Notes under the pieces: model-generated
The model's database searches: none
Told to the model about the DNA's origin: nothing
What the model saw: only the letters and a program-made list of their open reading frames with translations
Shown here: positions 17,084 through 35,326 of the stretch, one piece after another
Numbering within the stretch: position 1 is the stretch's first letter
How the letters are laid out: every line of letters starts with the position of its first letter
NCBI GenBank assembly: GCA_944332225.1
Contig: CALVJO010000001.1
Coordinates: forward strand, 46,566-110,565
Length of the DNA: 64,000 bases
From: an uncultured Bacilli bacterium
GTDB taxonomy: Bacteria; Bacillota_I; Bacilli_A; RFN20; CAG-449
Reading direction: 5' to 3'
Translations under genes and position numbers: made by a program

Positions 17084-17126
17084 TAATTTAAATAAATACC
17101 TTTTTACCCGTAAGGAATTAGCTAAC

Positions 17127-17264
17127 ATGCGTTATTTCACCTATTGGTCAAATGGTTTAAAAAAAGCTTTTGGCTATACTCCTCTTTTATGTAAATGTGG
17201 TTCATATATGATATTAAATCCTAAATTATCCTTTTATAATCATAGAGGAGGTTTTACCTAATGA
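17127..17264 (+). CDS. unannotated 45-aa zinc-ribbon-like small ORF
   Basis: It reads MRYFTYWSNGLKKAFGYTPLLCKCGSYMILNPKLSFYNHRGGFT. Its stop overlaps the start of the next ORF (TAATGA). The Y-W-S-N-G...C-K-C-G stretch faintly resembles the N-terminal Zn-ribbon of IS1595-family transposases. Confidence 0.3.
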
Positions 17265-17500
17265 GATATAATTTTAGAATTAGAAAAGATGAATACATTG
17301 ATGATTATGTTGTCGATATGAAATGCCTTAATTGTGATTATGAAGAAAATATCCCTTTGGATATTCTTTCATCATTCTTTGATCCTTCTGTTGATGAAAA
17401 TCCTGCCTTAACTTGCCCTCATTGTGACCAAGATTTATTCGTCCCTAAAGATATCTATGACCAAATTAAAGGTAATTTCGTGTATAAAGTAGATAAATAA
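17261..17500 (+). CDS. small Cys4 zinc-ribbon protein (79 aa), hypothetical
   Basis: It has CLNCDYE...CPHCDQ (CxxC...CxxC). A strong RBS AGAGGAGG precedes it. Together with the upstream mini-ORF it begins with MRY. Confidence 0.5.
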   Translation: MRYNFRIRKDEYIDDYVVDMKCLNCDYEENIPLDILSSFFDPSVDENPALTCPHCDQDLFVPKDIYDQIKGNFVYKVDK

Positions 17501-17523
17501 TCTTCTTTAATCTCATTTTTTTC

Positions 17524-17573
17524 TTTTTTTGTCACTTTCGTCTTCAAATACAATTTCCTAGACAAATCAAAAA
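17524..17573 (+). repeat. Copy A of a 50-bp intergenic repeat; inverted partner at 34959-35008
   Basis: tttttttgtcactttcgtcttcaaataCaatttcctagacaaaTcaaaaa is the reverse complement of 34959-35008 at 48/50 positions. Its termini are themselves inverted (ttttttgtc...gacaaa.caaaaa). Confidence 0.7.
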
Positions 17574-17598
17574 GCTAGGCCTGACACCTAGCTTTTTA
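17568..17598. terminator. bidirectional rho-independent terminator between convergent genes
   Basis: aaaaAGCTAGGcctgacaCCTAGCTtttt forms a 7-bp stem extended by A/T runs on both sides. It lies between the + gene ending at 17500 and jag (-) ending at 17612. Confidence 0.6.
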
Positions 17599-17611
17599 AC
17601 TACTAATAATA

Positions 17612-18196
17612 TTAATCAATATACTTAATGTGAAGACGTCTAGATTCTCCCATACCTTCTGATTCAGTCTTGATATGAGGCATTCCATTTAAGGCATTAT
17701 GGATAACTCTTCTTTCATCAGGAGTGAGATAGTCTAATGTCGCTTCGGTTTTATTCTTTTGAACCTCATGCGCGGTTTTTCTTGCAAGTCTAATCACTCG
17801 ATCATATTTCTCTGTTTTGTAGTTTCCAACATCGATTAAGATTCGATATTTTTTCTTGTAATAAGATGAGACAGCGATTTTAGTGAGCTCATTTAAAGCT
17901 TGTAATGATTTTCCATTTTTACCGATTAAAATCGCATTTCTATCAGATTCGACTCTTAATTTAATAACCCCTTCATTTAAAGTAGGAACAACTTTGTTAT
18001 CAAACCCTAAAGCTTCGATTCCATCGTGAAGATATTTTTGAGCAAAAGCGATGACATCCATGATGGTGAATACTTCAATTTCCACCTCATCTTCAGTCTC
18101 TTTTTTTAAGATGTACTCAATCTCTTCTTCCGAGCAAAATTCTTGCTCCGCGGCATTTTTAATTGCCTCTTGTAATGTTTTACCTTGATATAACAT
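17612..18196 (-). CDS. jag: Jag/KhpB RNA-binding protein (KH + R3H domains)
   Basis: It has the KH motif ILIGKNGKSLQALNEL and the C-terminal R3H motif DERRVIHNALNGMPHIKTESEG. It sits in the conserved position next to yidC, with GGAGGG RBS. Confidence 0.85.
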   Translation of the reverse strand: MLYQGKTLQEAIKNAAEQEFCSEEEIEYILKKETEDEVEIEVFTIMDVIAFAQKYLHDGIEALGFDNKVVPTLNEGVIKLRVESDRNAILIGKNGKSLQALNELTKIAVSSYYKKKYRILIDVGNYKTEKYDRVIRLARKTAHEVQKNKTEATLDYLTPDERRVIHNALNGMPHIKTESEGMGESRRLHIKYID

Positions 18197-18204
18197 AAAC
18201 CCTC

Positions 18205-19638
18205 CTATTTGGTTTTATACTTGATGTACTCCCCTTTACTCTTCTTTGAATGGTTAGCTACGATTAATTGAACAATTAATGATTGACCTAAAGTGATTAA
18301 AGCAGAGATGGTCCAATAAATAGCCATAGCTACAGGTAAGAAGAATCCTGAGAATAAAATCATACAGAACATGACGATTTGCATGATCCTCGCGGTTTTT
18401 TGTTGAGTATCTTGCATTGAAGTGTTCTTGTTATTTTTGTTCATCATTTTTCTTCTTCTCTTTTGAATCATTTGAGGAATGAACATGCTTATAAATTGGC
18501 AAAGAGCCATGATGATGAAGATCACTAAGGCGCAGGCAGAGGACGAACCTTGCCAATTGATAATTGAATTACCAGTTCCCGCGGATAAAGAAAGACCAAA
18601 TAATGATCCATCGCGGAGAATAGCTGAACCTGACATCGCTCCCCAAACTGGGATGAAGATAATGAATTGAAGAATTAATACAATAAACATTCCAAATGGA
18701 TTGATTTTGTATTTTTTGTATAAATTCATCTGAGCTTGGGCTAAAGCTTGCTGCTCATATTGATTTTCCTTCGCGTGAGGATATTTTCTTTGTAACGCCT
18801 CAAGTTCTGGGGCTAATTCTTGCATTCTAGTTTGAGAAATTGTTTGCTTTAAAGTTAAAAGCATCAATAAACCTCTGACAATTAAAGTAACAAAGAAGAT
18901 GGAAAGTATGATTCCTCCAACACCTAAAGATTGCATACCTATAGCAAAATAATAAAGCATCGCGGAGATTGGCCATACTAATAATCCTTCAAGCAATCCA
19001 TATCGGAAAGCTTCTCCCCAAGATTTACCTTCTAATTTTAATCCATCAAACACTCCATCAACTGGGGTGATACACGCGGTTATTGAATTAGCGTAAGTGT
19101 TAAATTGAGTCTCTAAAGTTGTAAAGAAATAATTTGTTCCGATCTGCTCTAAAGTTAGACCGTGATCGACAGCTTCTTTTCTAAACATTCTATAGTTTGA
19201 CCAAATATCATTAAGTGATGTTGATCCTTCTTTTGCATATTTAGTTAAAGCGTATTCGTCCGATTGAACAAATGCTTTATTGATGTCAGCATTCGTGGTT
19301 AATTCTTCAACCGTCATCGTTCCAAATGTTTTAGTTTGCTCAACATCATTAACAACATAAGTTAATTCTTCAGTTGAATAATACTCGATGACAATACTCG
19401 CGACTCTTTCTTCAACATAGGTGAAATATTCATCGCTTGGGGCAAAATACGATTCATTTTCATTAACCGTATCGATAATAACCTCAAGATTAGTTTTGCC
19501 TTCATCGTTAGTTGCCGTTTCAAAATTAACCATCATGTGAGCTTTATCTTGAACGGTACAAAAGCTATTAGTACATCCTGCTAGAACTAGAATTCCTCCT
19601 AGTAAAGCCACGAACTTCCATTTAGTTTTCCTTTTCAC
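18205..19638 (-). CDS. yidC: membrane protein insertase YidC/SpoIIIJ with an N-terminal lipoprotein signal and an unusually long extracytoplasmic domain
   Basis: The C-terminal core (LAQAQMNLYKKYKINPFGMFIVLILQFIIFIPVW) matches the YidC/Oxa1 family. The N-terminus MKRKTKWKFVALLGGILVLAGC is a lipobox. A GTG start at 19638 is preferred (GGAGGA 7 nt upstream) over the TTG at 19653. Confidence 0.85.
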   Translation of the reverse strand: MKRKTKWKFVALLGGILVLAGCTNSFCTVQDKAHMMVNFETATNDEGKTNLEVIIDTVNENESYFAPSDEYFTYVEERVASIVIEYYSTEELTYVVNDVEQTKTFGTMTVEELTTNADINKAFVQSDEYALTKYAKEGSTSLNDIWSNYRMFRKEAVDHGLTLEQIGTNYFFTTLETQFNTYANSITACITPVDGVFDGLKLEGKSWGEAFRYGLLEGLLVWPISAMLYYFAIGMQSLGVGGIILSIFFVTLIVRGLLMLLTLKQTISQTRMQELAPELEALQRKYPHAKENQYEQQALAQAQMNLYKKYKINPFGMFIVLILQFIIFIPVWGAMSGSAILRDGSLFGLSLSAGTGNSIINWQGSSSACALVIFIIMALCQFISMFIPQMIQKRRRKMMNKNNKNTSMQDTQQKTARIMQIVMFCMILFSGFFLPVAMAIYWTISALITLGQSLIVQLIVANHSKKSKGEYIKYKTK

Positions 19639-19975
19639 AGGCTTTTCCTCCAATTTTTTCTATTAAATGAGTTAGCTGGATTTTGTTTTGAGCGTAATTT
19701 TGAGAAACAAATCCTTTTCTAACAATAATCACGTAATCTAAGATTTTTAGATTTCCGTCAGATAATATTTCTCTAACCATCGCGCGAACTTGCCTTCTGA
19801 TCTTAACTCTCAATACCGCGATTCCTAGTTTTTTAGGTGTTGATATTCCAAACCGCGGGTGATCTAGCTCGTTCGATGAATAATAGACAACAAAGCTTTG
19901 GTTAGATTCTCTTTTTTGGGAAGAAATAATTTTTTGGAAGTCTTGCTCTTTTTTTACTCTTAACTCCTTTTTCAT
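19622..19975 (-). CDS. rnpA: ribonuclease P protein component
   Basis: 117 aa, basic. It reads RVKKEQDFQKI...RFGISTPKK...AVLRVKIRRQVRAMVRE and lies immediately downstream of rpmH. RBS GGAGGAAAA is present. Confidence 0.85.
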   Translation of the reverse strand: MKKELRVKKEQDFQKIISSQKRESNQSFVVYYSSNELDHPRFGISTPKKLGIAVLRVKIRRQVRAMVREILSDGNLKILDYVIIVRKGFVSQNYAQNKIQLTHLIEKIGGKACEKEN

Positions 19976-19990
19976 TTTTCCTCCGTTTTA

Positions 19991-20022
19991 ATTTTAAAAA
20001 ACCACTAAAGCGTTAGTGGTTC
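19991..20022 (-). terminator. hairpin plus U-run between rpmH and rnpA (partial terminator or attenuator)
   Basis: On the minus strand the sequence is AACCACTAAcgctTTAGTGGTTtttt, a 9-bp stem with a T-run. Confidence 0.5.
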
Positions 20023-20044
20023 ATACAAGTAAATTTAAGCAGAT

Positions 20045-20179
20045 AAGACTTTTCTACCTTTCAATCTTCTTCTCGCTAACACCTTACGTCCATTTGGGGT
20101 AGCCATTCTAGCTCTAAACCCACAGGTGTTTTGGTGTTTTCTTTTACTTGGTTGATACGTTCTTTTCATAATACACCTC
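20045..20179 (-). CDS. rpmH: 50S ribosomal protein L34
   Basis: It is not in the ORF track because it is only 44 aa. It translates to [54 protein letters not shown] precedes it. Confidence 0.9.
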
Positions 20180-20214
20180 CGAAATTTGTCTATATACAAG
20201 TGAGATTATAGATA

Positions 20215-20243
20215 TATATAATATTCAAGTCAAACAAAATAAC
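20215..20243 (-). promoter_or_regulatory. sigma-A promoter of the rpmH operon
   Basis: On the minus strand: TTGACT, a 17-nt spacer, then TATAAT. It lies about 35 nt upstream of the rpmH ATG. Confidence 0.55.
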
Positions 20244-20379
20244 TTGATAAACGAAATTTTATACTAGCTAATTTAAATGAATATTTTAGGTTAATTTTTC
20301 TAAGTTATGCACCAATTTAATTAAATGAATAACTTTTAAAATTAATTCACTTATATGTCAACAAAATTTTGTTAATTTT

Positions 20380-20640
20380 TTTATCAACATTAATCAATGT
20401 TAATTGTTGAAAACTATAATTTAGATGTGGAAAACTTTAAAAAATGACTTATTTATGATGTTTTTTATCAACATAACATTAATGAATGTGGAAACTTATT
20501 CACACTTTCCACGTTGATAGTTTTCAACAAATGTATCCACATTTTATCAACAAGTAAAATTGTGGATAAGTCAAAAAACATCTTATTTAAAGCATTTTTT
20601 GGACTTTGAGTTATCAACGTTAAAAAAATCTAAATTCTTG
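20380..20640. other. oriC: oriC upstream part: DnaA-box cluster and AT-rich region between rpmH and dnaA
   Basis: Perfect DnaA box TGTGGATAA at 20561-20569. GTATCCACA at 20533-20541 and TTATTCACA at 20496-20504 each match at 8/9. TGTGGAAAA at 20426-20434, TGTGGAAAC at 20487-20495 and multiple TTATCAACA boxes (20381, 20465, 20544, 20611) are present in both orientations. AT-rich tracts lie between them. Confidence 0.75.
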
Positions 20641-20695
20641 ATAATATTTTTCTTTGTTTGTGTGCTATTATTTATTGCACCTATAGGAGGAGATT

Positions 20696-22078
20696 ATGGT
20701 AATCGCTAAACAGAATTCAAATTGGAAAAAAACTCTTCAGTTGCTATCCACGAAAATTGACAATCATACTTTTGAAAGCTTTTTTGAAGATTTAACTTTA
20801 TCATCGATGGATGATAATCAAGCTACTTTAATCGTGCCTTCTCCTTTAGCCAAGCAATTTTTCTCTTTAAAAAGCGATACCTCATCGATGTTATTAAATG
20901 CGATCAATCAAGTTTTTGATAGTCATTTAAAAAAGATTTCTTTTCTGACTAACGAAGAGAGTAACGCTTTAAAGAAATCAGTTGAAACCAATGTTAGACC
21001 TAGAGAAAATTCTAATGTCAAAACTACTTTTTTCTCTAATTGTAAGATTAATAAAAATTATACTTTTGATAACTTCGTCGTTGGAGAATGTAATAGAGAA
21101 GCGGTTCGCGCGTCTTTATTAGTAGCTAATAATCCTGCGACTGCCTATAATCCATTGTTTATCTATTCTAAATCAGGATTAGGAAAGACACATTTATTGC
21201 ATGCGATAGCTAATTATTATCTTGAAAAACATCCTAAAGCTAATGTTTTATACATCACCACGGATGCTTTTATCGATGAATTTGTAAAATATTGTAAAGG
21301 TAATCAAGAAGATATCTCCATGAGAGAATTCTTCCAAGATGTTGATTTACTATTAGTCGATGATATTCAATTTTTATCGGATAAAACTAAAACCGCGGAG
21401 ATGTTTTTCTATATATTTTCATCTTTAATTAACAATGGTAGACAAATCGTTTTAACTTCTGATCGTCAACCTTCTGATTTAAGAGGTCTTGAAGAAAGAT
21501 TAGTCTCTCGTTTCTATATGGGATTAACCGTTAAGATGAACACACCTACAACTGATACATTAATTGAAATATTAAATAGAAAAATTATATATCGTGGATT
21601 AGATATTAAATTATTTGATCAAGATGGACTAGCCTTCATGGCTGAAAAATTTTCTCATAACGTTAGAGAGTTAGAGGGAGCTTTAAATAGATTATTATTT
21701 GCCTTATCTTCTAATGAGAATAAATATATTTCTTTAGATGATGTTAAAGACACCTTCTCTTTCTTAAAAGGAATTCAAGATTCTAAAAAGAAAGTAAATG
21801 AAGATGATATAATCTCTGTCGTTGGAGAATATTATCACTTCGATAATGAATCTATCAAATCAAAAGACCGTCGCGCGCAGGTAGCTATCGCTAGACGGGT
21901 TAGCATGTATCTTTGCCGGGCGATGCTATCTTCTTCCTTCACGGAAATCGGTAAAATATTTAAACGAGATCACTCAACCGTAATAACGGCGGTGAAAAAA
22001 GTGGAAAAAGAGATAAAAATCAACAATGAAATGTTGAATGCTGTTAATGATTTAAAGAAGCGAATTAAAGCTTTATAA
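20696..22078 (+). CDS. dnaA: chromosomal replication initiator protein DnaA
   Basis: It has the AAA+ Walker A motif GLGKTHLLHAIAN, the DDIQFL motif, and the C-terminal DnaA-box binding domain (AIARRVSMYLCR...). RBS AGGAGGAG is present. Confidence 0.95.
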   Translation: MVIAKQNSNWKKTLQLLSTKIDNHTFESFFEDLTLSSMDDNQATLIVPSPLAKQFFSLKSDTSSMLLNAINQVFDSHLKKISFLTNEESNALKKSVETNVRPRENSNVKTTFFSNCKINKNYTFDNFVVGECNREAVRASLLVANNPATAYNPLFIYSKSGLGKTHLLHAIANYYLEKHPKANVLYITTDAFIDEFVKYCKGNQEDISMREFFQDVDLLLVDDIQFLSDKTKTAEMFFYIFSSLINNGRQIVLTSDRQPSDLRGLEERLVSRFYMGLTVKMNTPTTDTLIEILNRKIIYRGLDIKLFDQDGLAFMAEKFSHNVRELEGALNRLLFALSSNENKYISLDDVKDTFSFLKGIQDSKKKVNEDDIISVVGEYYHFDNESIKSKDRRAQVAIARRVSMYLCRAMLSSSFTEIGKIFKRDHSTVITAVKKVEKEIKINNEMLNAVNDLKKRIKAL

Positions 22079-22135
22079 GCCTTAAATATGGTATTTTTTG
22101 CAAAAAAGTGTAGACTAAATAAGGATGAAACAAAC

Positions 22136-22195
22136 TTATCCACATTATCCACAGCCCTTATTATTACTAAATATAAAAAAATAAAATAAGAATAA
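22136..22195. promoter_or_regulatory. oriC: oriC downstream part: two tandem perfect DnaA boxes plus an AT-rich putative unwinding element between dnaA and dnaN
   Basis: TTATCCACA lies at 22136-22144 and again at 22146-22154. It is followed by ttattattactaaatataaaaaaataaaataagaataa. The bipartite origin arrangement resembles B. subtilis. Confidence 0.7.
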
Positions 22196-22210
22196 CTTAA
22201 AGGAGACAAA

Positions 22211-23347
22211 ATGAAATTCACAATCGATCGTCAAAAATTTTTAAAACTTTTAACCCAGGTAGGAGTAGCTATTGAACCCAAATCTCCTTATCCAGTTTAT
22301 CTAACTTATTCATTAACCTTAGATGATGAAGGATTAACTGTTATGGGAACTAATGGTTCATTAATCATTAAAGCTTTCACTCCTTATAAAAAAGGAGAAA
22401 CCTTAATAATCACAGATTACGATCAAGGTAAAGCTTTAGTCCAAGCTAAATATCTTCTAGAGATTGCTAAAAAGTTAGAGAGCCAAACTATCTCCTTAGA
22501 AGTAATCGATAATGTCATCGTTGATGTTTCTGACTCATCATCAAAGTTTAGATTAAAGGGAATGGATCCTTCTTCATATCCATCATTTGATTTATCTTTA
22601 AGCGGACAAAATATCACTTTAGAGGCTAACACTTTTAAAAATATTATTTCTCAAACAGCTTTTGCTGCCGCGAATGGAACCGTCAGCGGAGTTACTAAAC
22701 AATATCTTTACGGATTAAATATCGCCTGCAACGGACACACATTATCGTTCATGGCCGCGGATAACACTAGAATCGCTAAAAAGACTATTGAGATTGCTGA
22801 AGATTGTAATTTCTCAGTTATTTTACCAGTTAAAGCAGTTAATGAAATATCTAAGATGATCGATGGAGGAGATATCACCATCAGCATTTTAGAAAAGGCG
22901 GTAATTTTCTCTTATCAAGATGTAGTTTTATACACAAGATTAATCTCAGGAGAATATGAGCTTAATAAGAGATCTTGGAACATCACTCCTAAATATGTCT
23001 TACAAGCTCCAACTGAAACATTAATCTCTGCGATTCAAAAAGCAACCTTGCTTGCAGTTGATACTGAAAACCTAGTTATGTTAGTCGTATCAGATAAAGA
23101 ATGCCGTTTCTCGTCTTCATCTTCTCAAGTAGGCTCCGCGGATATAACTATCGATAATTATCGTTATAAAGGCGATTACTTTGAAATATATATAAACAGT
23201 CAATTAGTTATCGATGCTTTAAGAGCCTGTCAAGGTGAGGAAGCGGTCTTAACTTTCGCTTCTGAAAATAGCATCTTCAAAATCGAAAATCCAAAGGATC
23301 CAAATTTAACTTTATTAACGATCCCTGCGATTCCAAACTTCAATTAA
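22211..23347 (+). CDS. dnaN: DNA polymerase III beta sliding clamp
   Basis: 378 aa, beginning MKFTIDRQKFLKLL... It sits in the canonical position after dnaA. RBS AAAGGAG is present. Confidence 0.95.
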   Translation: MKFTIDRQKFLKLLTQVGVAIEPKSPYPVYLTYSLTLDDEGLTVMGTNGSLIIKAFTPYKKGETLIITDYDQGKALVQAKYLLEIAKKLESQTISLEVIDNVIVDVSDSSSKFRLKGMDPSSYPSFDLSLSGQNITLEANTFKNIISQTAFAAANGTVSGVTKQYLYGLNIACNGHTLSFMAADNTRIAKKTIEIAEDCNFSVILPVKAVNEISKMIDGGDITISILEKAVIFSYQDVVLYTRLISGEYELNKRSWNITPKYVLQAPTETLISAIQKATLLAVDTENLVMLVVSDKECRFSSSSSQVGSADITIDNYRYKGDYFEIYINSQLVIDALRACQGEEAVLTFASENSIFKIENPKDPNLTLLTIPAIPNFN

Positions 23348-23353
23348 AATTCT

Positions 23354-23378
23354 AAAGCCGTGAAAACGGCTTTTTTTA
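23354..23378 (+). terminator. rho-independent terminator after dnaN
   Basis: AAAGCCGtgaaaaCGGCTTTtttttt. Confidence 0.55.
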
Positions 23379-23527
23379 ACGCTTAATCAAAAGAAATAAA
23401 TAATTAGAGTTTATATATTACTCTTTTAAAAACGAGGCTTAAATGGCGTTTTTGCGTCAAATAATTCTTTTTTATTTATATAAATAAATAAAAGTGTTAT
23501 TATTTTGATGTTGAGGACAAAGTTTGT

Positions 23528-23746
23528 ATGAAAGAATTTAAAATCATCCAAGAACCATTGCTTCTTCAAAATTTTTTAAAGTTGACTGATTATATTCAAA
23601 CCGGAGGTCAATCAAAAATTTTCCTTCAAGAAAATGAAGTCTTAGTCAACAACGAAAAAGAAACTAGAAGAGGAAGAAAACTTTATAACCAAGATAAAGT
23701 TATCGTCAATCAAGAAGAATGGATCATTAAATTAGATGTGGGTTAA
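23528..23746 (+). CDS. yaaA: S4-domain RNA-binding protein YaaA
   Basis: 72 aa. The sequence LQNFLKLTDYIQTGGQSKIFLQENEVLVNNEKETRRGRKLY matches B. subtilis YaaA. It sits in the conserved position between dnaN and recF. Confidence 0.8.
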   Translation: MKEFKIIQEPLLLQNFLKLTDYIQTGGQSKIFLQENEVLVNNEKETRRGRKLYNQDKVIVNQEEWIIKLDVG

Positions 23747-24782
23747 AGAGTTAAAGTTAATCAACTTCCGTAACTACTCTAATTTAGAAATTGGCTTTTC
23801 AAAAGGTATTAATTATATCCACGGAGATAATGGAAGCGGAAAGACAAGTCTAGTTGAGGCTATTTCATTGCTTTTAAACGGTAAATCTTTTCTAGCATCA
23901 AATGATATCGAGATGATTAAGCTTGATGAGGAGTATTCCTTTGTGAAGATAAAGTTAGATAACGATGAAGTATTTTCTTTCTATCTAACTAAGCAAGGAA
24001 AAGAGCTATCCATCGATCAAGAAAAGATTAAAACCTTATCTTCAATAGGAGGTAGATATAAATTAATCACCTTCCTTCCTAAGGAAATTGAACAGTTTAA
24101 GATTTCTCCTGAAGCAAGAAGAAAGTTTGTAGATCAAGGAATTACCTTACTTGATAAACAGTATCTTTCTAAATTAATGAGATATCGAGCAATTTTAAAG
24201 AATATTAAAGATTCTTATAAGAACTCATTTTCTAAGGAATATATCGATGTCTTATTAACTAAATTGGTAGATGAAGGAATATCAATAAGTCGTGAAAGAG
24301 AAAAGTTTATCTTTAGAATCAATCAAGAATTAGAAAGCATCAATAAGTTTCTAACGAAGGATAAAGATATTAAACTAACCTATTTAAAAGATATCGAGAT
24401 TAAGAGTAAAGAAGAATATCTTAACGAGATAAAAAATACAATGTCCTATCAAGAAGGTAGATTAACCATAAAAGGAATTCATCACGATGATATAGAAATA
24501 TATTACGGAGGTCTAAAAGTTAAAGAATACGGCTCACAAGGTCAAAATAGAACCTCTTTCATCGGAATAAAATTAGCCTTAGCGTCACTTATAAAAAAAG
24601 TATGCAATATAGACCCAATCATGATTCTTGATGATGTTCTTTCTGAATTAGACCAAGTTCAACAAGAAAAATTACTATCTACTTTAAAAAACTATCAACA
24701 AACATTTATAACTTCAGTCACAAAAATCCAAGGTGAAGTAAATAATTATCTAATAGAAGAAAATCAAATACGAGGAGGATAA
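23736..24782 (+). CDS. recF: DNA replication and repair protein RecF
   Basis: It begins MWVKELKLINFRNY and has the Walker A motif HGDNGSGKTSLVEA and an ABC-type signature near the C-terminus. It overlaps the yaaA end by 11 nt. Confidence 0.9.
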   Translation: MWVKELKLINFRNYSNLEIGFSKGINYIHGDNGSGKTSLVEAISLLLNGKSFLASNDIEMIKLDEEYSFVKIKLDNDEVFSFYLTKQGKELSIDQEKIKTLSSIGGRYKLITFLPKEIEQFKISPEARRKFVDQGITLLDKQYLSKLMRYRAILKNIKDSYKNSFSKEYIDVLLTKLVDEGISISREREKFIFRINQELESINKFLTKDKDIKLTYLKDIEIKSKEEYLNEIKNTMSYQEGRLTIKGIHHDDIEIYYGGLKVKEYGSQGQNRTSFIGIKLALASLIKKVCNIDPIMILDDVLSELDQVQQEKLLSTLKNYQQTFITSVTKIQGEVNNYLIEENQIRGG

Positions 24783-24785
24783 CAA

Positions 24786-26768: not shown

Positions 26769-26776
26769 GAGGAACT

Positions 26777-29335
26777 ATGGCTGAAAGAGATAATCAAGAC
26801 TTCAACGAAGAAGTAAAAGAAACAGAAGAAGTATCCGATAACGAACTTGAGGGTATTGAAGAAGGAATAGTTCCTTCTCTAAAAGATCGAGAATTAGTTC
26901 ATGAAGTAAAACAATCATTCTTAGACTATGCGATGAGCGTCATCGTAGCAAGAGCGATTCCTGATGTTAGAGATGGTTTAAAGCCGGTTCATAGAAGAAT
27001 TATCTTCGGTATGAATGAACAAGGCATGCAACCAGATAAACCTTATAAAAAATGCGCGCGTATCGTCGGTGATGTCATGGGAAAATATCACCCTCACGGA
27101 GACGCGGCTATCTATTCATCTTTAGTTAGATTAGCTCAACCATTCTCAATTAGATACACCTTAGTTGATGGTCATGGTAACTTTGGTGACGTCGACGGTG
27201 AAGAAGCTGCCGCGATGCGTTACACCGAAGCGAGAATGACTAAAATCTGTTTAGAGATGGTTAGAGATATCAAGAAAAATACTGTTGATTTTATCCCTAA
27301 CTATGATGGTGAAGAAGAAGAACCAGTCGTATTACCTTCTAGAATTCCTAACTTGTTAATTAATGGATCTAATGGTATCGCGGTTGGTATGGCTACCAAT
27401 ATTCCACCTCATAACATCACCGAAGTTATTAACGCATTGATAGCTTTAAGTGAAAATGAGGATTTAACTCCTTTAGAGATAATGAGTAATTATCTTTATG
27501 GACCTGATTTCCCTACCGGGGCGATTATTTTAGGTCGTTCAGGAATCAAAAAAGCATATGAGACAGGTCAAGGAACTATAATCATTAGATCTAGATGTCA
27601 AATTGAAGAGCATCCTAATGGTAAGAAAGATATCATAGTCACTGAGATTCCTTATCAAGTTAATAAAAGAACGATGATTGAAGGAATCGCAAAACTAGTT
27701 CATAACAAAGTGATTGATGGAATTACTGATTTAAGAGATGAATCTAATAAAGAAGGCGTCAGAGTGGTAATTGAATTAAGAAAAGACGCGATTCCTGAAG
27801 TTATTCTCAATCAGTTATATAAAAACTCTCAATTACAAGTATCTTATGGAATTATCATGCTATGTTTAGTTAATGGCGAGCCAAAAATCTTACCAATCAA
27901 TAAGATGCTTAGCTATTATCTAGATTTCCAATGCGAAGTTATTAAAAGAAGAACAGAGTATGATTTAACTAGATGCAAAAATCAACTTCACATCTTAGAA
28001 GGTTTAGTGATCGCGATTAATAATATCGATGAAGTTGTTCAAATAATCCGTCATTCTTCAACTTCTGAGGAAGCGAAGAATCAATTAATTGAAAGATTTA
28101 ATTTATCTGAGATTCAAGCTAAAGCAATTTTAGATATGCGTCTCGTCCGTTTAGTTGGTCTTGAACTTAACAACATTAAAGAAAATATTGCTTCATTAAA
28201 TGCAGAGATTGCTCGATTAGAGAATATTCTTTCTTCACATCATAATATCTTAGAAGTCGTAGTTAACGAATTAAAAGAAATTAAAGAGAAATATGGAGAT
28301 GAGAGAATCACAGAAATATCTAATGACATCTCGATGATTGATGATGAAGATTTGATTCCAAGGGAAGATGTAGTTATCTCTATGACTGAATCTGGATATA
28401 TTAAGAGAATGTCTCTTGATACATTTAAGGTTCAAAATAGAGGTGGAGTCGGAGTCTCTGGAGGTAAGATGAATAAAGATGATGTCACATCGATAATCAC
28501 TTATTCTAAGACTCATACTGATTTATTGTTCTTCTCATCTTTAGGAAAGGTTTATCGAATCAGAGGTTATAAAGTTCCTGAATATTCTAGAACTTCTAAA
28601 GGATTGCCGGTTCAAAACTTACTTCCTATAGAAGGTGAAGAAAAGATTCTTTCTATCATTTCAATCGATGATTATGAAGAAGGTAAATATTTATTCTTTG
28701 CAACTAAGCAAGGTGTAGTTAAGAAGACTCCAGTTAAAGAATTCGCCTCAATTAGACAAAATGGTAAGAAAGCTATTTTGATGAGAGAAGACGATGAATT
28801 AATCGGCGTTAAATTAACTAATGGAGATGATTTAATCCTCCTCTCTAGCGACAATGCGAAGATGGTAGTATTCAAAGAGAACAATGTTAGATCGATGTCT
28901 AGAAACTCAACAGGAGTCAAAGGTATGGATTTAGGTGAAAATGATCATGTCATATCATTATCAACCTCTAATGAAGGAAAATACATTCTCTCTATTTCTG
29001 AAAACGGATATGGAAAGATGTCTCTTAGAGAATCTTATAGAATAACTTCTCGGGGATCTAAAGGTGTCATCACGATGAATGTTACTGAAAAAACCGGAAG
29101 ATTAGTTCAAACAAAAGCTGTTAACGGAGATGAGGATATCTTAGTTATCACAGAGCAAGGCGTGGTTATCAGAACTTCCTTAAAGCAAGTTGCTATCTCA
29201 GGAAGAAACGCTCAAGGGGTAAAGATTATTAGAATCAAAGACAGCGAGGATAAAGTAAAGTCAATCGCGGTTTGTGATCCTTCTGATAAAGAAGAAATAG
29301 AAAATGTTAATGAAGGGGAGCAAGAAAATGCTTGA
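26777..29335 (+). CDS. gyrA: DNA gyrase subunit A
   Basis: It carries AMSVIVARAIPDVRDGLKPVHRR, the active-site Tyr region AAAMRYTEA and C-terminal beta-pinwheel repeats. 852 aa. Confidence 0.97.
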   Translation: MAERDNQDFNEEVKETEEVSDNELEGIEEGIVPSLKDRELVHEVKQSFLDYAMSVIVARAIPDVRDGLKPVHRRIIFGMNEQGMQPDKPYKKCARIVGDVMGKYHPHGDAAIYSSLVRLAQPFSIRYTLVDGHGNFGDVDGEEAAAMRYTEARMTKICLEMVRDIKKNTVDFIPNYDGEEEEPVVLPSRIPNLLINGSNGIAVGMATNIPPHNITEVINALIALSENEDLTPLEIMSNYLYGPDFPTGAIILGRSGIKKAYETGQGTIIIRSRCQIEEHPNGKKDIIVTEIPYQVNKRTMIEGIAKLVHNKVIDGITDLRDESNKEGVRVVIELRKDAIPEVILNQLYKNSQLQVSYGIIMLCLVNGEPKILPINKMLSYYLDFQCEVIKRRTEYDLTRCKNQLHILEGLVIAINNIDEVVQIIRHSSTSEEAKNQLIERFNLSEIQAKAILDMRLVRLVGLELNNIKENIASLNAEIARLENILSSHHNILEVVVNELKEIKEKYGDERITEISNDISMIDDEDLIPREDVVISMTESGYIKRMSLDTFKVQNRGGVGVSGGKMNKDDVTSIITYSKTHTDLLFFSSLGKVYRIRGYKVPEYSRTSKGLPVQNLLPIEGEEKILSIISIDDYEEGKYLFFATKQGVVKKTPVKEFASIRQNGKKAILMREDDELIGVKLTNGDDLILLSSDNAKMVVFKENNVRSMSRNSTGVKGMDLGENDHVISLSTSNEGKYILSISENGYGKMSLRESYRITSRGSKGVITMNVTEKTGRLVQTKAVNGDEDILVITEQGVVIRTSLKQVAISGRNAQGVKIIRIKDSEDKVKSIAVCDPSDKEEIENVNEGEQENA

Positions 29336-30617
29336 TATTAAATTTGTAAGAGAAAACCCAGATTTGGTAAAAGAAAATATTAAAAAGAAATTTGAAGATC
29401 ATAAGCTTCATTTAGTTGATGAAGTTATCGATCTTGATAAGAAGATTCGTGAAAAGATTCAATTAGGCTCAGAATTACGTGCGAAACGTAACTCTCTTTC
29501 TCAAGAAATTGGAAAATTGATGAGAGAAAAGAATATTGCCAAAGCAAATGAGAATAAAGCTCAAGTTGTAGAGATTAATAAGCAGCTTGAGGATATTGAA
29601 AAGGATGAAGAATCTTTAAATCAAGAATTAACTAAAAGGATGTTGGTGATTCCAAATATCATCGATCCATCGGTACCTATTGGAAAAGATGATTCTGAAA
29701 ATGTGGAAAGAGAAAAGTTTGGAGTTATTGAAGAGAAAAACTTTGAAATACCATATCATCTAGACATCTTAGAGTCTCTTGATGGAATAGATTTAGATTC
29801 CGCGCGTAAAGTCGCAGGAAATGGCTTCTATTATTTAACAGGCGATATCGCTAGATTACATTCCGCGGTTTTAACTTACGCGAGAGATTTCATGATAGAT
29901 AAAGGATTCACTTATGTAATTCCTCCTTACATGATTCATTCTAATGTCGTTACAGGAGTTATGTCTTTTGATGAGATGGATCAGATGATGTATAAAATTG
30001 AAGGCGAAGATTTATATTTAATCGGTACTTCTGAGCATTCAATGATTGGTAGATTTATAGATACCATCATAGATAAATCTAAATTACCTTTAACTTTAAC
30101 TTCATACTCTCCTTGTTTTAGAAAAGAAAAAGGCGCGCATGGAATTGAAGAAAGAGGAATTTATAGAATCCATCAATTTGAAAAGCAAGAGATGATCGTA
30201 GTATGCGAACCTGAAGATAGCATGAAATGGTTTGATAAGCTTTGGTCATATACCGTTGAATTATTTATCTCTATGGGAATCCCTGTTAGAACTTTAGAAT
30301 GCTGCTCAGGCGACCTCGCGGATTTAAAAGTTAAATCTGTCGATGTTGAAGCTTGGTCTCCTCGACAAAAGAAATATTTTGAAGTAGGTTCTTGCTCTAA
30401 TTTAGGTGACGCGCAGGCGAGAAGATTAAAAATTAGAATTAAAGGTGAAAAAGGAAATTACTTTGCTCACACCTTAAATAATACAGTTGTCGCTCCACCT
30501 AGAATGTTGATTGCTTTCTTAGAGAATCATCTTAATGAAGATGGTTCAGTAACGATACCTGAAGTTTTAAGAAAGTATATGGGTAATAAAGATAGAATCT
30601 TGCCTAAGAAAAAATAA
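29329..30617 (+). CDS. serS: serine--tRNA ligase
   Basis: MLDIKFVRENPDLVKENIKKK is the canonical SerS N-terminus, followed by class II aaRS motifs. The ATG at 29329 with RBS AGGGGAG is preferred over the in-frame upstream ATG at 29304. It overlaps the gyrA end by 7 nt. Confidence 0.95.
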
Positions 30618-30631
30618 TTAAATTAGATAAT

Positions 30632-30667
30632 TAAAAAAAAGATCTCTTTGATGGGATCTTTTTTTGA
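30632..30667 (+). terminator. rho-independent terminator after serS
   Basis: aaaaaaaAGATCtctttgatggGATCTtttttt: the stem is extended by A/T runs and followed by a T7 run. Confidence 0.6.
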
Positions 30668-30687
30668 TGATGAAAGCGAATCAAAAA

Positions 30688-30737
30688 AAGCTTAACACCT
30701 CAAAAAAGAGGTTGAGCCTAAAAATGAGGTGTTAAAC
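30688..30737. repeat. 11-bp perfect inverted repeat with a 26-nt spacer (large stem-loop) in the serS-nrdD intergenic region
   Basis: TTAACACCTCA aaaaagaggttgagcctaaaaa TGAGGTGTTAA. No U-run follows on either strand. Confidence 0.4.
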
Positions 30738-31033
30738 ATGTCTAAATAAGACAAAAATCACTTATTTATATGAACAAAAAACATAATAAAATGATTAGAA
30801 AAATTTATTCATCTTTAAAGTGATAAAATAGGATAAAAAAGACTTAGTAATTAATTAGTATTAAAATTTAATATTACTATGTAATATTAAAACTTTAAAA
30901 ATTATTATTTTAACCGTTTCGGTTTTTATCTTTTTTAACGTGTGTTAACATATTTTTACCTTAAAGGGAAAGATATAAAAAACATGTCTTTTAGTGACTG
31001 TGCTTTTATGTCCAAAAAAAGGAAGGGGTTCTT

Positions 31034-33190
31034 ATGAAAATTATTAAACGCAGCGGAACAGAAGTTAAATTCGATATTAATAAAATCGTTAAAGCAATCG
31101 AAGGAGCGAACAACGAAGTTTCTTTAGATAAGCAATTAACTCAAGAGCAAATTTTAGAATGCGCGAGAAACGTTGAAAATATTTGTCATGAAAAAGGACG
31201 TATTTTAAACGTCGAAGAAGTCCAAGATCTTGTCGAAAATCAAATAATGGATAAGAAAGCTCATGAAGTAGCTAGAAAATATATCACTTATCGTTATCAA
31301 AGAGCCTTAGCAAGAAAAGCTAACACAACCGATCAGCAAATATTAACGCTTCTTGAATGTAACAACCAAGATGTAAAAGAAGAGAACTCTAATAAAAACC
31401 CAACAGTCAACTCCGTTCAAAGAGACTATATGGCCGGCGAGGTATCTAAAGATATCACTAAAAGAATTTTACTCCCTAAAGATATAGTAGAAGCTCACGA
31501 GCAAGGAATAATCCATTTCCATGACGCGGATTATTTTGCTCAGCACATGCATAACTGTGATTTAGTTAACTTAGAAGATATGTTACAAAATGGCACGGTT
31601 ATCTCAGGAACCATGATTGAGAAACCAAAATCATTCTCAACAGCTTGTAACATAGCAACTCAAATAATCGCTCAAGTAGCCTCGAATCAATATGGAGGAC
31701 AATCTATATCTATCACTCATCTTGCTCCGTTTGTTCAAATTTCTAGAGAGAAAATTAGAGCAAACGTCTTAGAGGAATTTGAAGGTGTAGAAGTATCTCA
31801 AGAGCATATTGAAAAAGTTGTAGCTAAGAGACTAAAAGAAGAGATTAAAAAAGGTGTTCAAACCATTCAATATCAGATAGTTACTTTATTAACTACGAAT
31901 GGACAAGCTCCGTTTGTAACTATATTCATGTATTTAAATGAAGCTAGAAGTGAGCAAGAAAAGCAAGATATAGCCTTAATTACCGAAGAGATTTTAAAGC
32001 AAAGAATCGAAGGTGTTAAAAACGAAAAAGGAGTTTGGATTACTCCAGCCTTCCCTAAACTTATCTATGTTCTTGAACCAGATAATATTAAAGAAGGAAC
32101 CCCTTATTTCTATTTAACTGAGCTTTCCGCGAAATGCACGGCTAAGAGAATGGTTCCAGATTATATCTCAGAAAAAATTATGTTAGAGCTCAAGCAAGGT
32201 AATTGCTACACCTGCATGGGATGCCGTTCCTTCTTAACTCCTTATAAAAACGAAAAAGGTGAATATCAATTCTACGGAAGATTTAATCAAGGCGTGGTCA
32301 CGATTAACTTAGTTGATGTTGCTTTATCATCTAAAGGTGATGTTGAATCATTCTGGAAGATTTTTGATGAAAGATTAGATCTTTGCTATCGTGCCTTGAT
32401 GTGCCGTCATAATCGATTAAAAGGAACTAAATCAGATGTCGCACCTATCTTATGGCAATATGGAGCCTTAGCTAGATTAGAAAAAGGTGAGACTATCGAT
32501 AAACTTTTATATAACGGATATTCAACTATTTCTCTTGGATACGCAGGATTGTATGAATGTGTGAAATATATGACTGGTAAGTCTCATACCGATCCTGAGG
32601 CTACTCCGTTTGCTTTAGAAGTTATGCAGCACATGAACGATGCCTGCGCGAAATGGAAGGCAAAAGAGCATATTGATTTCTCGTTATATGGCACGCCATT
32701 AGAGTCAACTACTTACAAGTTTTCAAAGTGCCTTCAAAAGAGATTTGGAATCATTAAAGGTATCACCGATAAAAACTATATAACGAATTCTTATCATATC
32801 GTGGTAAGCGAGAATATTGATGCCTTTAAGAAGCTTGAATTTGAAGCTCAATTCCAAAGATTATCTCCAGGAGGAGCAATCTCTTATGTTGAAGTTCCAA
32901 ATATGATGAATAATATTCCAGCGGTTATCAAAGTTATTCAATATATCTACGAACATATCATGTACGCGGAGTTGAACACTAAATCTGATTACTGCCAAGT
33001 ATGCGGATACGATGGGGAAATCCAAATCAAAGAAGATAAAGATGGAAAACTTTATTGGGAATGCCCTCAATGCGGAAATAGAGATCAATCTAAGATGAAT
33101 GTAGCAAGAAGAACCTGCGGCTATATTGGATCTCAATTCTGGAATCAAGGAAGAACTCAAGAGATTAGAGATAGAGTCTTACATTTATAA
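31034..33190 (+). CDS. nrdD: anaerobic ribonucleoside-triphosphate reductase (class III)
   Basis: It has an N-terminal ATP-cone (MKIIKRSGTEVKFDINKI), a C-terminal Zn-ribbon (CQVCGYDGE...CPQCGN) and the glycine-radical motif RTCGYIGS. 718 aa. Confidence 0.95.
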   Translation: MKIIKRSGTEVKFDINKIVKAIEGANNEVSLDKQLTQEQILECARNVENICHEKGRILNVEEVQDLVENQIMDKKAHEVARKYITYRYQRALARKANTTDQQILTLLECNNQDVKEENSNKNPTVNSVQRDYMAGEVSKDITKRILLPKDIVEAHEQGIIHFHDADYFAQHMHNCDLVNLEDMLQNGTVISGTMIEKPKSFSTACNIATQIIAQVASNQYGGQSISITHLAPFVQISREKIRANVLEEFEGVEVSQEHIEKVVAKRLKEEIKKGVQTIQYQIVTLLTTNGQAPFVTIFMYLNEARSEQEKQDIALITEEILKQRIEGVKNEKGVWITPAFPKLIYVLEPDNIKEGTPYFYLTELSAKCTAKRMVPDYISEKIMLELKQGNCYTCMGCRSFLTPYKNEKGEYQFYGRFNQGVVTINLVDVALSSKGDVESFWKIFDERLDLCYRALMCRHNRLKGTKSDVAPILWQYGALARLEKGETIDKLLYNGYSTISLGYAGLYECVKYMTGKSHTDPEATPFALEVMQHMNDACAKWKAKEHIDFSLYGTPLESTTYKFSKCLQKRFGIIKGITDKNYITNSYHIVVSENIDAFKKLEFEAQFQRLSPGGAISYVEVPNMMNNIPAVIKVIQYIYEHIMYAELNTKSDYCQVCGYDGEIQIKEDKDGKLYWECPQCGNRDQSKMNVARRTCGYIGSQFWNQGRTQEIRDRVLHL

Positions 33191-33738
33191 TGCGTTACGG
33201 AAATATTAAAAATTGCGATATCGCAGATGGATTAGGAGTCAGAGTCTCTTTGTTTGTATCAGGCTGCAGAAATCACTGTAAAGGTTGCTTTAATGAAGAG
33301 ACTTGGGATTTTAACTTCGGGGATGAATTCACTAAAGATGTCGAAGATTATATTATTGATTTATTAAAACAAGAATATATCGATGGATTTACTGTTTTAG
33401 GTGGTGAGCCTTTTGAAGAGGAGAATCAAGAAACAGTTTATAATCTATTAAAAAGAATTAAGGAAACATATCCTAATAAGAATATATGGGCTTATACAGG
33501 ATATATATTAGATAAAGATTTATTGCCTGAAGAAGGAAGAAAGCATACAAAGTTTACCAAAGATATCATTAAATTAATTGATGTTTTGGTGGATGGTCCG
33601 TTCATCGAAGAAAAAAAGAATCTAACCTTAGAGTTTAGAGGATCGGAGAATCAACGAGTCATCGATGTTCAAGAATCTTTAAAGCAAGGAAAGATAGTCT
33701 TATATAAAATTAAACAAATGACTATTGAAAAAGCGTAG
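33190..33738 (+). CDS. nrdG: anaerobic ribonucleotide reductase activating protein (radical SAM)
   Basis: It has CDIADGLGVRVSLFVSGCRNHCKGCFN with CxxxCxxC and is translationally coupled to nrdD (TAATG). Confidence 0.9.
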   Translation: MRYGNIKNCDIADGLGVRVSLFVSGCRNHCKGCFNEETWDFNFGDEFTKDVEDYIIDLLKQEYIDGFTVLGGEPFEEENQETVYNLLKRIKETYPNKNIWAYTGYILDKDLLPEEGRKHTKFTKDIIKLIDVLVDGPFIEEKKNLTLEFRGSENQRVIDVQESLKQGKIVLYKIKQMTIEKA

Positions 33739-33848
33739 AATTTCTATGCTTTTTTCTTTTTTGAAGGGTAAATTCATAAAAAAGATTAAAGATTATGCTG
33801 TTTATAAATTTTAAGGTTGCATTAATAAAGTAAAAGATTAAAATATAA

Positions 33849-33863
33849 TTAGAATGATTCTAA
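33849..33863. promoter_or_regulatory. 7-1-7 inverted repeat resembling a Fur/PerR-family box, overlapping the start codon of the Fur-family gene
   Basis: TTAGAATgATTCTAA is a perfect palindrome. It is one mismatch per half-site from the PerR box consensus TTATAATnATTATAA. Confidence 0.4.
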
Positions 33864-34234
33864 AAAACAGCAAGAAAAGAAACCAAATCTATCAGCTAAT
33901 CGCGACAAGCGATGAACATCTCTCGGCTTATGATGTTTTAAGAATTTGCAAAGAGAGAGGATACGACCTCTCTTTAGCAACAATTTATAATAATTTAAAT
34001 TGTCTTAGTGATGAAAATGTCATAAAGAGAGTTAAGGTTCCTGGATATGAAGATCATTTTGATCGAACTTTAGATGATCATGATCATTTCTTTTGTACAT
34101 GTTGCCATTGCTTAATCGATATTGATTTAGATCAGCAATTTAATCCTTATATCGATAAGTATGGTAATAAGTTTGAACGAAGAGAAACAACATATTTTGG
34201 TTTATGTTCTTCTTGTCTCAAGAAGAATCATTAA
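33854..34234 (+). CDS. perR: Fur-family transcriptional regulator (probably the peroxide regulator PerR)
   Basis: It has an N-terminal wHTH (RNQIYQLIATSDEHLSAYDV) and the HDHFFCTCCHCLID metal site typical of the Fur family. The assignment to PerR rests on the adjacent rubrerythrin gene. Confidence 0.75.
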   Translation: MILKNSKKRNQIYQLIATSDEHLSAYDVLRICKERGYDLSLATIYNNLNCLSDENVIKRVKVPGYEDHFDRTLDDHDHFFCTCCHCLIDIDLDQQFNPYIDKYGNKFERRETTYFGLCSSCLKKNH

Positions 34235-34264
34235 TAAACATAAACAGGGAGGAATTTATAGTTT

Positions 34265-34915
34265 ATGAAAACCTACAAGTGCAAAGTCTGTGGAAAAGTA
34301 TTCCAAAGTGACGAGAAAGATCCAGTTTGCCCAGTCTGCCATCAAAAAGGAGACGCTTTAGAGGAAGTTAAAGCTCCTACATTAAAAGGCACTCAAACTG
34401 AAAAGAATCTCCAAACTGCCTTCGCTGGAGAATCTCAAGCTAGAAACAAATATACTTATTTTGCTTCAGTAGCTAAAAAAGAAGGATATGAACAAATTGC
34501 TGCTTTATTCTTAGAAACTGCTGATAACGAAAAAGAGCATGCTAAATTATGGTTCAAAGCTTTAGGTGAATTAGGTGGAACTGCTGAAAACTTAAAAGCT
34601 GCCGCGGAAGGCGAAAACTATGAATGGACAGAAATGTACAAAGAGTTCGCGGAGACTGCCGATAAGGAAGGATTCCATGAATTAGCAGAGCAATTCAGAG
34701 GTGTTGCCGCGATTGAAAAACACCATGAAGAGAGATATTTAGCATTATTAAAGAATGTTGAATCTCTTGAAGTTTTCACAAAGAAAACTGGTATTCATAC
34801 TTGGAAATGCCGTAACTGCGGCTGCTTAGTTGTATCTACTGAAGCTCCAAAGATTTGCCCAGTTTGCTTACACCCTCAAGCTTACTTTGAATTAGCTGAC
34901 TGCGAAAATTATTAA
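34265..34915 (+). CDS. rbr: rubrerythrin-family diiron peroxidase with rubredoxin-like Cys4 motifs at both the N- and C-terminus
   Basis: N-terminal CKVCGK...CPVCHQ, ferritin-like diiron E...ExxH motifs ([16 protein letters not shown]), and C-terminal CRNCGC...CPVCLHP. RBS GGGAGGA is present. Confidence 0.85.
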
Positions 34916-34936
34916 TAATTTTAAAAAATAATCATT

Positions 34937-34964
34937 AAAGATGGATGAAAGTCCATCTTTTTTG
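34937..34964 (+). terminator. rho-independent terminator after rbr
   Basis: AAAGATGGAtgaaagtCCATCTTTttttg. Confidence 0.6.
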
Positions 34965-35008
34965 CTTTGTCTAGGAAATTATATTTGAAGACGAAAGTGA
35001 CAAAAAAA
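34959..35008 (-). repeat. Copy B of the 50-bp intergenic repeat (inverted relative to copy A at 17524-17573)
   Basis: The reverse complement of 34959-35008 is tttttttgtcactttcgtcttcaaataTaatttcctagacaaaGcaaaaa, matching 17524-17573 with 2 mismatches. Confidence 0.7.
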
Positions 35009-35127
35009 GCTAAAAATTTGACCAAAAATTTTAAAAAAATGATTTTTTGATAAAAAAAGTGATGAATAAGCATAAAAAAATTAAATTACCCCCTTGTCAA
35101 AATTAAAATCTATGCTAGTATGAGGGC

Positions 35128-35326
35128 ACAAAGAAACTTATATCACCACATTAAATCTTCAAACACTGGTTTATCGTCTCGTGACGAAAGAGTTAAGACT
35201 AGAGATCTTAACAAAAAGATTTAAAAACAAAATGTGTTATAAAATATTAGAAGATGAGATGTGATGTCGATGCTCCTAGCGTGGGTAAAAAGAGTAAAGT
35301 AAGAGAGCTAGGAGCTTTTATTTTGC
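35128..35326 (+). ncRNA. candidate small structured RNA (about 200 nt) with its own promoter and terminator; function unknown
   Basis: Putative promoter TTGTCA (35094-35099), 16-nt spacer, TAGTAT (35116-35121). Internal hairpin GTTAAGActagagaTCTTAAC. Terminator GCTCCTAGC, 26-nt loop, GCTAGGAGC then TTTTATTTT (35272-35326). The neighbouring gene is on the opposite strand. Confidence 0.25.

Follow-up and report, generated by a model that had tools for sequence, protein, structure and literature searches.

Insertion sequences (IS) of the IS91 family, among them IS91, IS801 and IS1294, do not duplicate their target on insertion and carry a terIS end upstream of the transposase gene tnpA, where in IS801 and IS1294 a subterminal palindrome lies beside 5′-GTTC (PMC13181058). 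The oriIS end is on the downstream side of tnpA, and for transposition of IS91 the terminal 82 bp of its right end are enough (PMC13181058; also PMC6218425, PMC13393415). With the insertion sequence common region (ISCR) elements, orphan or partial ends are common and oriIS is the sole end needed for one-ended mobilisation (PMC6218425, PMC13393415). The present analysis concerns a 50-bp inverted repeat which brackets the origin (oriC/dnaA) block of an uncultured Bacilli bacterium, in a stretch of 64,000 nucleotides (GenBank assembly GCA_944332225.1, contig CALVJO010000001.1, positions 46,566 to 110,565; hereafter the window). Both arms of this repeat are, with high confidence, the right, oriIS-side terminus of one and the same IS91-family element, the remains of two separate, now decayed insertions.

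The arms lie at 17524-17573 (+ strand, copy A) and 34959-35008 (− strand, copy B) and are identical at 48 of 50 positions, with the sequence TTTTTTTGTCACTTTCGTCTTCAAATA[C/T]AATTTCCTAGACAAA[T/G]CAAAAA read from 17524 to 17573 on the + strand and from 35008 to 34959 on the − strand. Of these 50 bp, two are mismatched, and the longest uninterrupted match is 27 bp. The pair is the longest inverted repeat of the window; the repeat search reports it as 90 nt at 80%, the extra length consisting of A/T runs and two unrelated terminator stems. A 38-nt core, allowing up to 3 mismatches, is found at just two places in the window and in none of 100 dinucleotide shuffles; no copy is expected by chance. Copy A is followed at a distance of a few bases by the hairpin GCTAGG..CCTAGC (17575-17593) and copy B by GATGGA..TCCATC (34940-34957), which is unrelated in sequence. 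The initial annotation had described the 48/50 inverted repeat and the adjoining terminator hairpins, and both descriptions are confirmed by reading the two stretches, by the core search with its shuffles and by the presence of a different hairpin after each copy. It had also credited the repeat with inverted termini of its own; the TTTGTC...GACAAA symmetry inside the repeat is a 6-bp match that does not fold significantly (DNA fold z = -0.1 to -0.6). DNA folding of both strands is no better than that of shuffles, giving no significant self-fold. No Rfam match was found at the repeat, either with the whole window at gathering thresholds or with both loci at E-values up to 10, the best score of 20.8 bits against a gathering score of 100 being sub-threshold noise.

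The lead to the identity of the repeat is a 79-aa open reading frame (ORF), termed orfB, that ends 23 nt upstream of copy A. An identical 79-aa protein is encoded directly downstream of a 449-aa Zn_Tnp_IS91/Y2_Tnp transposase in contigs L004 and L006-L010, and related metagenome assemblies contain intact copies of the element at several other loci. At full length the element measures 1,725 bp (reference L009:121-1845) and consists, from left to right, of a GAAC-AAAA-hairpin left end, the transposase gene, the overlapping orfB and a right end ...CAAATACAATTTCCTAGACA. In the aligned contigs its left boundary is sharp (GAACAAAAGCG..., in a longer form GAACAAAAGCGAAATAAATTTCGC...), as is its right boundary (...CCTAGACA, in a longer form ...TTGTCACTTTCGTCTTCAAATACAATTTCCTAGACA). 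The same right-end sequence terminates copies at eight sites with unrelated flanks, six of which lie outside the window in related assemblies; this is the outcome that the initial annotation had named as refuting its idea, and it leaves the repeat no special link to oriC. When the full IS was compared with the window by blastn, IS positions 1250-1725 matched window positions 17090-17566 at 97.7% and IS positions 1676-1725 matched 35015-34966 at 92%; no other piece of the IS, a terIS partner included, was found in the window. Knowledge of the exact ends of this element, and of its subgroup in uncultured gut- or rumen-type Bacilli, should help annotation and explains assembly breaks there.

The 449-aa transposase matches the NCBIfam model NF033538 (IS91 family transposase) with 214.9 bits against a cutoff of 125, and in Pfam PF14319 (Zn_Tnp_IS91) with 70.5 bits and PF04986 (Y2_Tnp) with 80.7 bits, both above the curated cutoffs. 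Its HUH motif WHPHIHV aligns with WHPHVHV of IS1294 and WHPHIHL of IS91, and its Y-x3-Y motif NYIARYASHPP with YLGRYLKKPP and YFGSYLKKPP of the same two elements, while its identity to any plasmid-borne relative is at most about 30%. The left end, GAAC-AAAA-GCGAAAT/ATTTCGC, reads on the bottom strand as hairpin-TTTT-GTTC (DNA fold z about -6). This terIS hairpin is kept in seven relatives, in which the stem arms co-vary (GCGAAAT, GCGATT, CCGAAAT, GTGAAT). At the other end, the motif AAATA(C/G)AATTTCCTA is retained by relatives whose transposases show 47-75% identity, the hosts of the relatives being metagenome-assembled genomes of uncultured low-GC Bacilli, Mollicutes and Anaeroplasma-like organisms. 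The right terminus ...AATACAATTTCCTAGACA can be compared with ...TTTTTCAATTTCCTATACGT in IS1294 and ...TTTAAATTCCTATCGAT in IS91; a terminal motif CAATTTCCTA(G/T)AC is common to this IS and IS1294 (...CAATTTCCTATACGT|GAAC), and the right-end CAATTTCCTAGAC is also found in IS1294, with a close version in IS91 (...AAATTCCTATCGAT|GAAC), both taken from annotated E. coli plasmids. With its dissimilar ends, the terIS layout of its left end and this motif lying downstream of tnpA, the element has the repeat as its oriIS-side end.

The likeness to IS1294, IS801 and IS91 thus takes in the zinc-binding CxxC pairs, the HUH and Y-x3-Y motifs, dissimilar ends without terminal inverted repeats, a terIS upstream of tnpA beside 5′-GTTC on the bottom strand, an oriIS downstream and the lack of a target duplication. 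There are differences too. This IS has orfB downstream of tnpA whereas IS91 has orf121 upstream (PMC13181058), and its oriIS is flanked by the end of a terminator T-tract whereas IS1294 and IS91 plasmid loci show GAAC (top strand). Like the ISCR elements, for which a conserved oriIS end beside variable DNA is often the sole means of recognition (PMC6218425, PMC13393415), the element is represented in the window by its oriIS end. However, the ISCR model scores the transposase at only 49 bits against a cutoff of 925, there are no resistance genes or integron context here, and the oriIS ends face the oriC block.

In every relative examined (L021-L034, L053, L055, L059), orfB lies downstream of tnpA, with 31-75% identity and a conserved VPKDVYDQIKGxF tail. 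No orfB match was found in the IS1294 and IS91 loci, and no significant family was found for it in Pfam or NCBIfam. By analogy with Orf121 of IS91, its product is possibly an accessory or regulatory factor.

The features of the window that are referred to below are as follows, in order of position.

17090-17564, + strand: 5′-truncated IS relic of 475 bp, approximately the last 475 of the 1,725 bp (from blastn, with the right junction set against empty sites)
17127-17261, + strand: transposase remnant of the last 44 codons, nonfunctional alone (MRYFTYWSNGLKKAFGYTPLLCKCGSYMILNPKLSFYNHRGGFT, the C-terminus of the 449-aa transposase)
17261-17500, + strand: orfB, an intact 79-aa CxxC...CPxC zinc-ribbon ORF and second gene of the IS, its start overlapping the tnpA stop
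17524-17564, + strand: repeat copy A, the oriIS-side terminus ending ...AATACAATTTCCTAGACA, beyond which the flanks diverge at eight sites
17565-17598, no strand assigned: pre-existing target AATC plus AAAAAGCTAGG-loop-CCTAGCTTTTT, the bidirectional terminator of jag (−) and a 272-aa helix-turn-helix gene (+)
20381-20569, no strand assigned: DnaA-box cluster (oriC), seven boxes in 190 bp, none with more than 1 mismatch (context only)
34937-34967, + strand: rbr terminator hairpin and T-tract (AAAGATGGA-loop-TCCATCTTTTTTGCTT), from the terminator scan, target of the second insertion
34968-35009, − strand: repeat copy B, solo scar of the IS right terminus of about 34-42 bp (from blastn)

The relic at site A sits between the stop codon of the 272-aa gene and the terminator this gene has in common with jag. 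Seven IS-free contigs (L062, L064, L065, L067-L070) have the empty site, TTAATAATCT|AATCAAAAAGCTAGG..., with the terminator unchanged, and the 475-bp relic lies exactly at the empty-site point in the window and in L001-L003. As the empty site already carries the hairpin, the latter pre-dates the insertion. The left junction of the relic follows the intact flank ...TTAATAAT(C/T)T. Comparison of the empty TTAATAATCT|AATCAAAAAG with the occupied TTAATAAT(C/T)T-[IS]-AATCAAAAAG reveals no target duplication, the occupied copy being 5′-truncated. A microhomology deletion was considered for the left junction of copy A and does not fit the observed sequence.

Three contigs deserve separate mention. 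L071 (ERZ16268083 scaffold_1164) has a full-length gene for the 449-aa transposase at the jag site (L071:3586-5190), but has lost the oriIS terminus entirely and orfB in its 3′ part, and the contig stops exactly at the left end of the IS; either the element decayed here in a different way or the same target was hit by a separate insertion. In one lineage, that of L001, the copy-A terminus (L001:10255-10300) bears five clustered substitutions (TTGCCGCTTAAGTCTTC for TTGTCACTTTCGTCTTC) and the T-run before it is shorter by 2 nt (a deletion at alignment columns 427-428), changes that are consistent with the decay of an unused end. L003 (ERZ16268270 scaffold_26039, L003:1-3945) has the copy-A left junction, with the 272-aa gene followed by IS position about 1247, and in place of jag its right flank has a hairpin and then 5S and 23S ribosomal RNA (rRNA) genes. 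Its single-nucleotide polymorphisms follow the L001 allele but change over at about 50 bp from the end, and either recombination between IS copies or a chimeric metagenome assembly would account for this contig.

At site B, positions 34968-35001 are IS-derived while 35002-35009 (AAAAAAAG) are common to the IS and the native flank, so that the junction is ambiguous. Over the 901 bp compared here (34800-35700), a contig of ERZ24773544 is identical to the window. The rbr terminator is identical in the scar-free strains L011, L013, L015, L017 and L019. Between the two flanks of the scar (left ...CATCTTTTTTGCTT(T), right AAAAAAAGCTAAAAATTTGACC), contigs L011, L013, L015, L016 and L018 carry a block of 5.9 kb (e.g., L011:10704-16600) with genes for a LytTR response regulator, a histidine kinase, a 1,055-aa GH3 protein and a 149-aa ORF, which places the block between rbr and the GH2 gene in IS-free strains. 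The block is partly deleted in L017, and in L019 different genes follow the regulator. In the most parsimonious history for this site, a full IS would first have inserted beside the rbr terminator, after which a deletion would have removed most of the IS together with the adjacent 5.9-kb block, ending in the 9-bp microhomology CAAAAAAAG common to the IS and the far flank. The strain comparison points to an IS-associated loss of a sensor-kinase/GH3 block beside the origin region. The contigs with the empty site A are themselves the ones without scar B (L064=L011, L068=L015, L069=L017, L070=L018), and therefore both relics belong to one sub-lineage. It is worth mentioning that the far end of the block, ...AAAAAAGTTC|AAAAAAAGC, has the same GTTC as the terIS cleavage site of the IS. 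A one-ended transposition boundary at this GTTC was considered but finds support in no contig, and the match is treated as a coincidence.

Neither relic possesses a transposase or a terIS, and both are most likely inert. Both oriIS ends face the oriC block, with the remaining IS body outside it, and so rolling-circle mobilisation, even with a transposase acting in trans, would run away from the block.

The sites at which the element and its relatives are found share a common setting. A scan of metagenomes with a 23-mer of this IS returned no match, while a looser 20-mer for the subgroup returned 11 loci, which were used for flank statistics only; two of these (L052 and L058), together with a looser in-gene match in L001, were dropped as chance matches within genes. 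Taking this IS together with its relatives, 18 of 23 independent flanks have a hairpin at or below -8 kcal/mol within 45 nt of the right end, whereas among random 45-mers drawn from the same loci 21% have one (Mann-Whitney p = 8e-8). When scored by script, the stem starts 8-10 nt from the last IS base in 14 of the 18 detected stems, with a median of 9; by eye, and with mis-scored or missed cases included, about 20 of the 23 sites fit this spacing, the gap being filled by an A/T tract. The element's own terIS has the same arrangement, in which 8 nt (GAAC plus AAAA, or TTTTGTTC when the stem is read first) adjoin the stem. At all nine annotated sites the gene neighbouring oriIS is convergent with tnpA, the order being gene, hairpin, T-tract, oriIS. 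The classical target was looked for beside oriIS and neither GTTC nor CTTG was found, the bottom-strand flanks being GATT, GCTT, TTTT, CTTT, AATT, NNTT and similar. This is a variant target rule within the IS91 family and no ground for excluding membership. The element is previously unnamed and arguably represents a new subgroup of the family, marked by the downstream zinc-ribbon orfB and by terminator-adjacent insertion.

Since the hairpin and T-tract geometry of these sites copies that of terIS, the transposase probably treats terminators as terIS look-alikes on single-stranded DNA, going by the site statistics. The fuller proposal, which we hold to be evenly balanced between right and wrong, is that the orfB-bearing subgroup homes to intrinsic terminators rather than to GTTC/CTTG, that oriIS is joined 8-10 nt 3′ of the stem on the T-tract strand through mimicry of terIS, and that, as this would be the sense strand of genes co-oriented with replication and with it the lagging-strand template, the orientation of insertions flips at oriC. 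If this were true, relic ends would record replichore polarity. The spacing of 8-10 nt from the stem, mirrored in terIS, also offers a testable clue to target choice by Y2 HUH enzymes, which is poorly understood for the IS91 family. A single literature search for terminator targeting by IS91-family elements brought up nothing relevant.

Insertion beside hairpins or terminators is known from other mobile elements. Class C bacterial group II introns are found downstream of intrinsic terminators, IS1397 and ISKpn1 in repetitive extragenic palindromic (REP) sequences, and the HUH elements of the IS200/IS605 group target the lagging-strand template. The present element appears to share with these an insertion guided by structure, beside a stem-loop and with fixed polarity, as well as an HUH enzyme on single-stranded DNA, but its enzyme belongs to another class or family. 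At both sites in the window, the strand with the T-tract serves as the lagging-strand template, a location that fits the habit of HUH enzymes to use single-stranded DNA, though with two sites only it is inseparable from gene orientation.

The polarity bears directly on the origin block. The DnaA-box cluster at 20381-20569, near a sign change of the GC skew at about 20 kb, assigns copy A to the left replichore and copy B to the right one. On the left, jag lies on the − strand and on the right, rbr on the + strand, both being transcribed away from oriC. Given the fixed polarity of insertion at terminators, two relic ends at these genes would necessarily be inverted with respect to each other. 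Between the arms, Pfam domains of the called genes identify jag, yidC, rnpA, dnaA, dnaN, an S4-like gene, recF, gyrB, gyrA and serS, followed by nrdD, nrdG, a Fur-family regulator and rubrerythrin (rbr), in agreement with the gene content first given for this segment. Two perfect DnaA boxes (TTATCCACA) also lie in direct tandem at 22136-22153, between dnaA and dnaN, and together with the cluster at 20381-20569 they suggest a bipartite origin, as in many Firmicutes.

A number of points weigh against the derivation of both arms from decayed IS91-family insertions. The classical tetranucleotide is unseen, and the chemistry of transposition is carried over from relatives that share at most about 30% identity in the transposase. 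An exact 24-mer of the repeat has no match in the reference-genome collection, the representative genome of the host species being either absent from it or free of the IS. Comparisons were made throughout with metagenome assemblies, in which repeats may be collapsed or wrongly joined. Copy A has its left junction exactly at the original target boundary, which would also fit an element that arrived already truncated, through premature termination of rolling-circle transfer, rather than one shortened by a later deletion. With site B, a full-length IS flanked by the rbr terminator and the 5.9-kb block is seen in no contig, and the history given above is a reconstruction. Finally, the survival of harmless insertions may, beside target choice, lie behind the association with terminators, although survival alone would not be expected to yield so fixed a spacing and polarity.

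The alternative raised in the initial annotation, that the arms are a working substrate for RecA-type or site-specific inversion of the oriC/dnaA block, with both orientations present in the population, is very unlikely. An inversion spanning the origin keeps genes co-oriented with replication, and a minimal length of homology is needed for efficient RecA recombination. Inverted repeats do flank oriC here, and the joining of the copy-A relic to 5S/23S rRNA genes in L003 makes a rearrangement through 475 bp of homology conceivable, unless that contig is a chimera. However, none of 67 contigs (23 with orfB, 22 with rbr and 22 with jag) has a recombinant junction of the orfB-repeat-rbr or GH2-repeat-jag type, and the long contigs have either the junctions of the window or IS-free ones, with the same gene order. 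As the IS-free strains share the order of the window, its orientation is the ancestral one. The 50 bp of homology between the arms, with no perfect run above 27 bp, is near or below the minimum for efficient RecA recombination, and no recombinase or invertase domain was found by Pfam in the genes flanking either arm. Inversion of the 17.4-kb block is therefore not borne out, and two decayed insertions of one IS explain the repeat that flanks oriC, with no sign that the origin block flips.

Less probable still is that the repeat is a REP- or MITE-like (miniature inverted-repeat transposable element) non-autonomous element with inverted termini of its own, scattered across the genome. The repeat does resemble such elements and bacterial interspersed mosaic elements (BIME) in being short, intergenic, close to terminator hairpins and repeated at several loci, and it has the TTTGTC/GACAAA symmetry. 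It differs in that it derives from the terminus of an autonomous IS and does not transpose as a unit. In those other copies found that keep it, the 50-mer is the terminal part of the 1.7-kb IS or of a truncated relic, and copy B, the sole isolated copy, stands in place of the 5.9-kb block and is most plausibly a deletion scar. None of the marks of a MITE or REP that were looked for (a target-site duplication, a paired terIS end or a significant self-fold) was found. Of the earlier suggestion of a mobile, MITE-like repeat, the mobile origin stands, in the form of an IS terminus, but the MITE or REP identity does not, copy A being contiguous with a transposase remnant and orfB and copy B being a scar.

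Least credible of all is a duplicated regulatory site, small RNA or small peptide gene, with one copy at each edge of the block, for although a TTGTCA...TA(C/T)AAT pair and short ORFs overlap the repeat (MSRKLYLKTKVTKK... on the reverse strand, both copies) and a 50-aa hydrophobic ORF is present at copy B only, the hexamers are just 14 nt apart and go unreported by the promoter scan, the small ORFs are conserved only inside the repeat and differ outside it, strains lacking both copies exist, and the sequence has neither an Rfam family nor a fold better than that of shuffles, which also leaves the small RNA or protein target that had been put forward unsupported. A peptide gene over the repeat is rejected, as conservation of the ORFs is confined to the repeat itself.

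Two further features were seen on the copy B side of the window. Between the scar and the GH2 gene, a spacer of 530 bp (35009-35543, − strand) contains terminator-like hairpins at 35517-35491 and 35358-35341, with a promoter-like TTGATA-17-TAAAAT (35453-35425) upstream of the second. These are conserved in the IS-free strains and give only weak, sub-threshold Rfam matches; the spacer could encode a small transcript or leader of about 80 nt. Further along, a direct repeat at 38373-38403 and 38521-38551 consists of two 31-nt palindromic units, TGCAAT.TG.AAGCGCTTTTGATTGCA, which are 90% identical and 148 nt apart. The pair lies just upstream of an AraC-family regulator gene, on the side of a divergent uxuA operon in related strains, and looks like a pair of operator sites.

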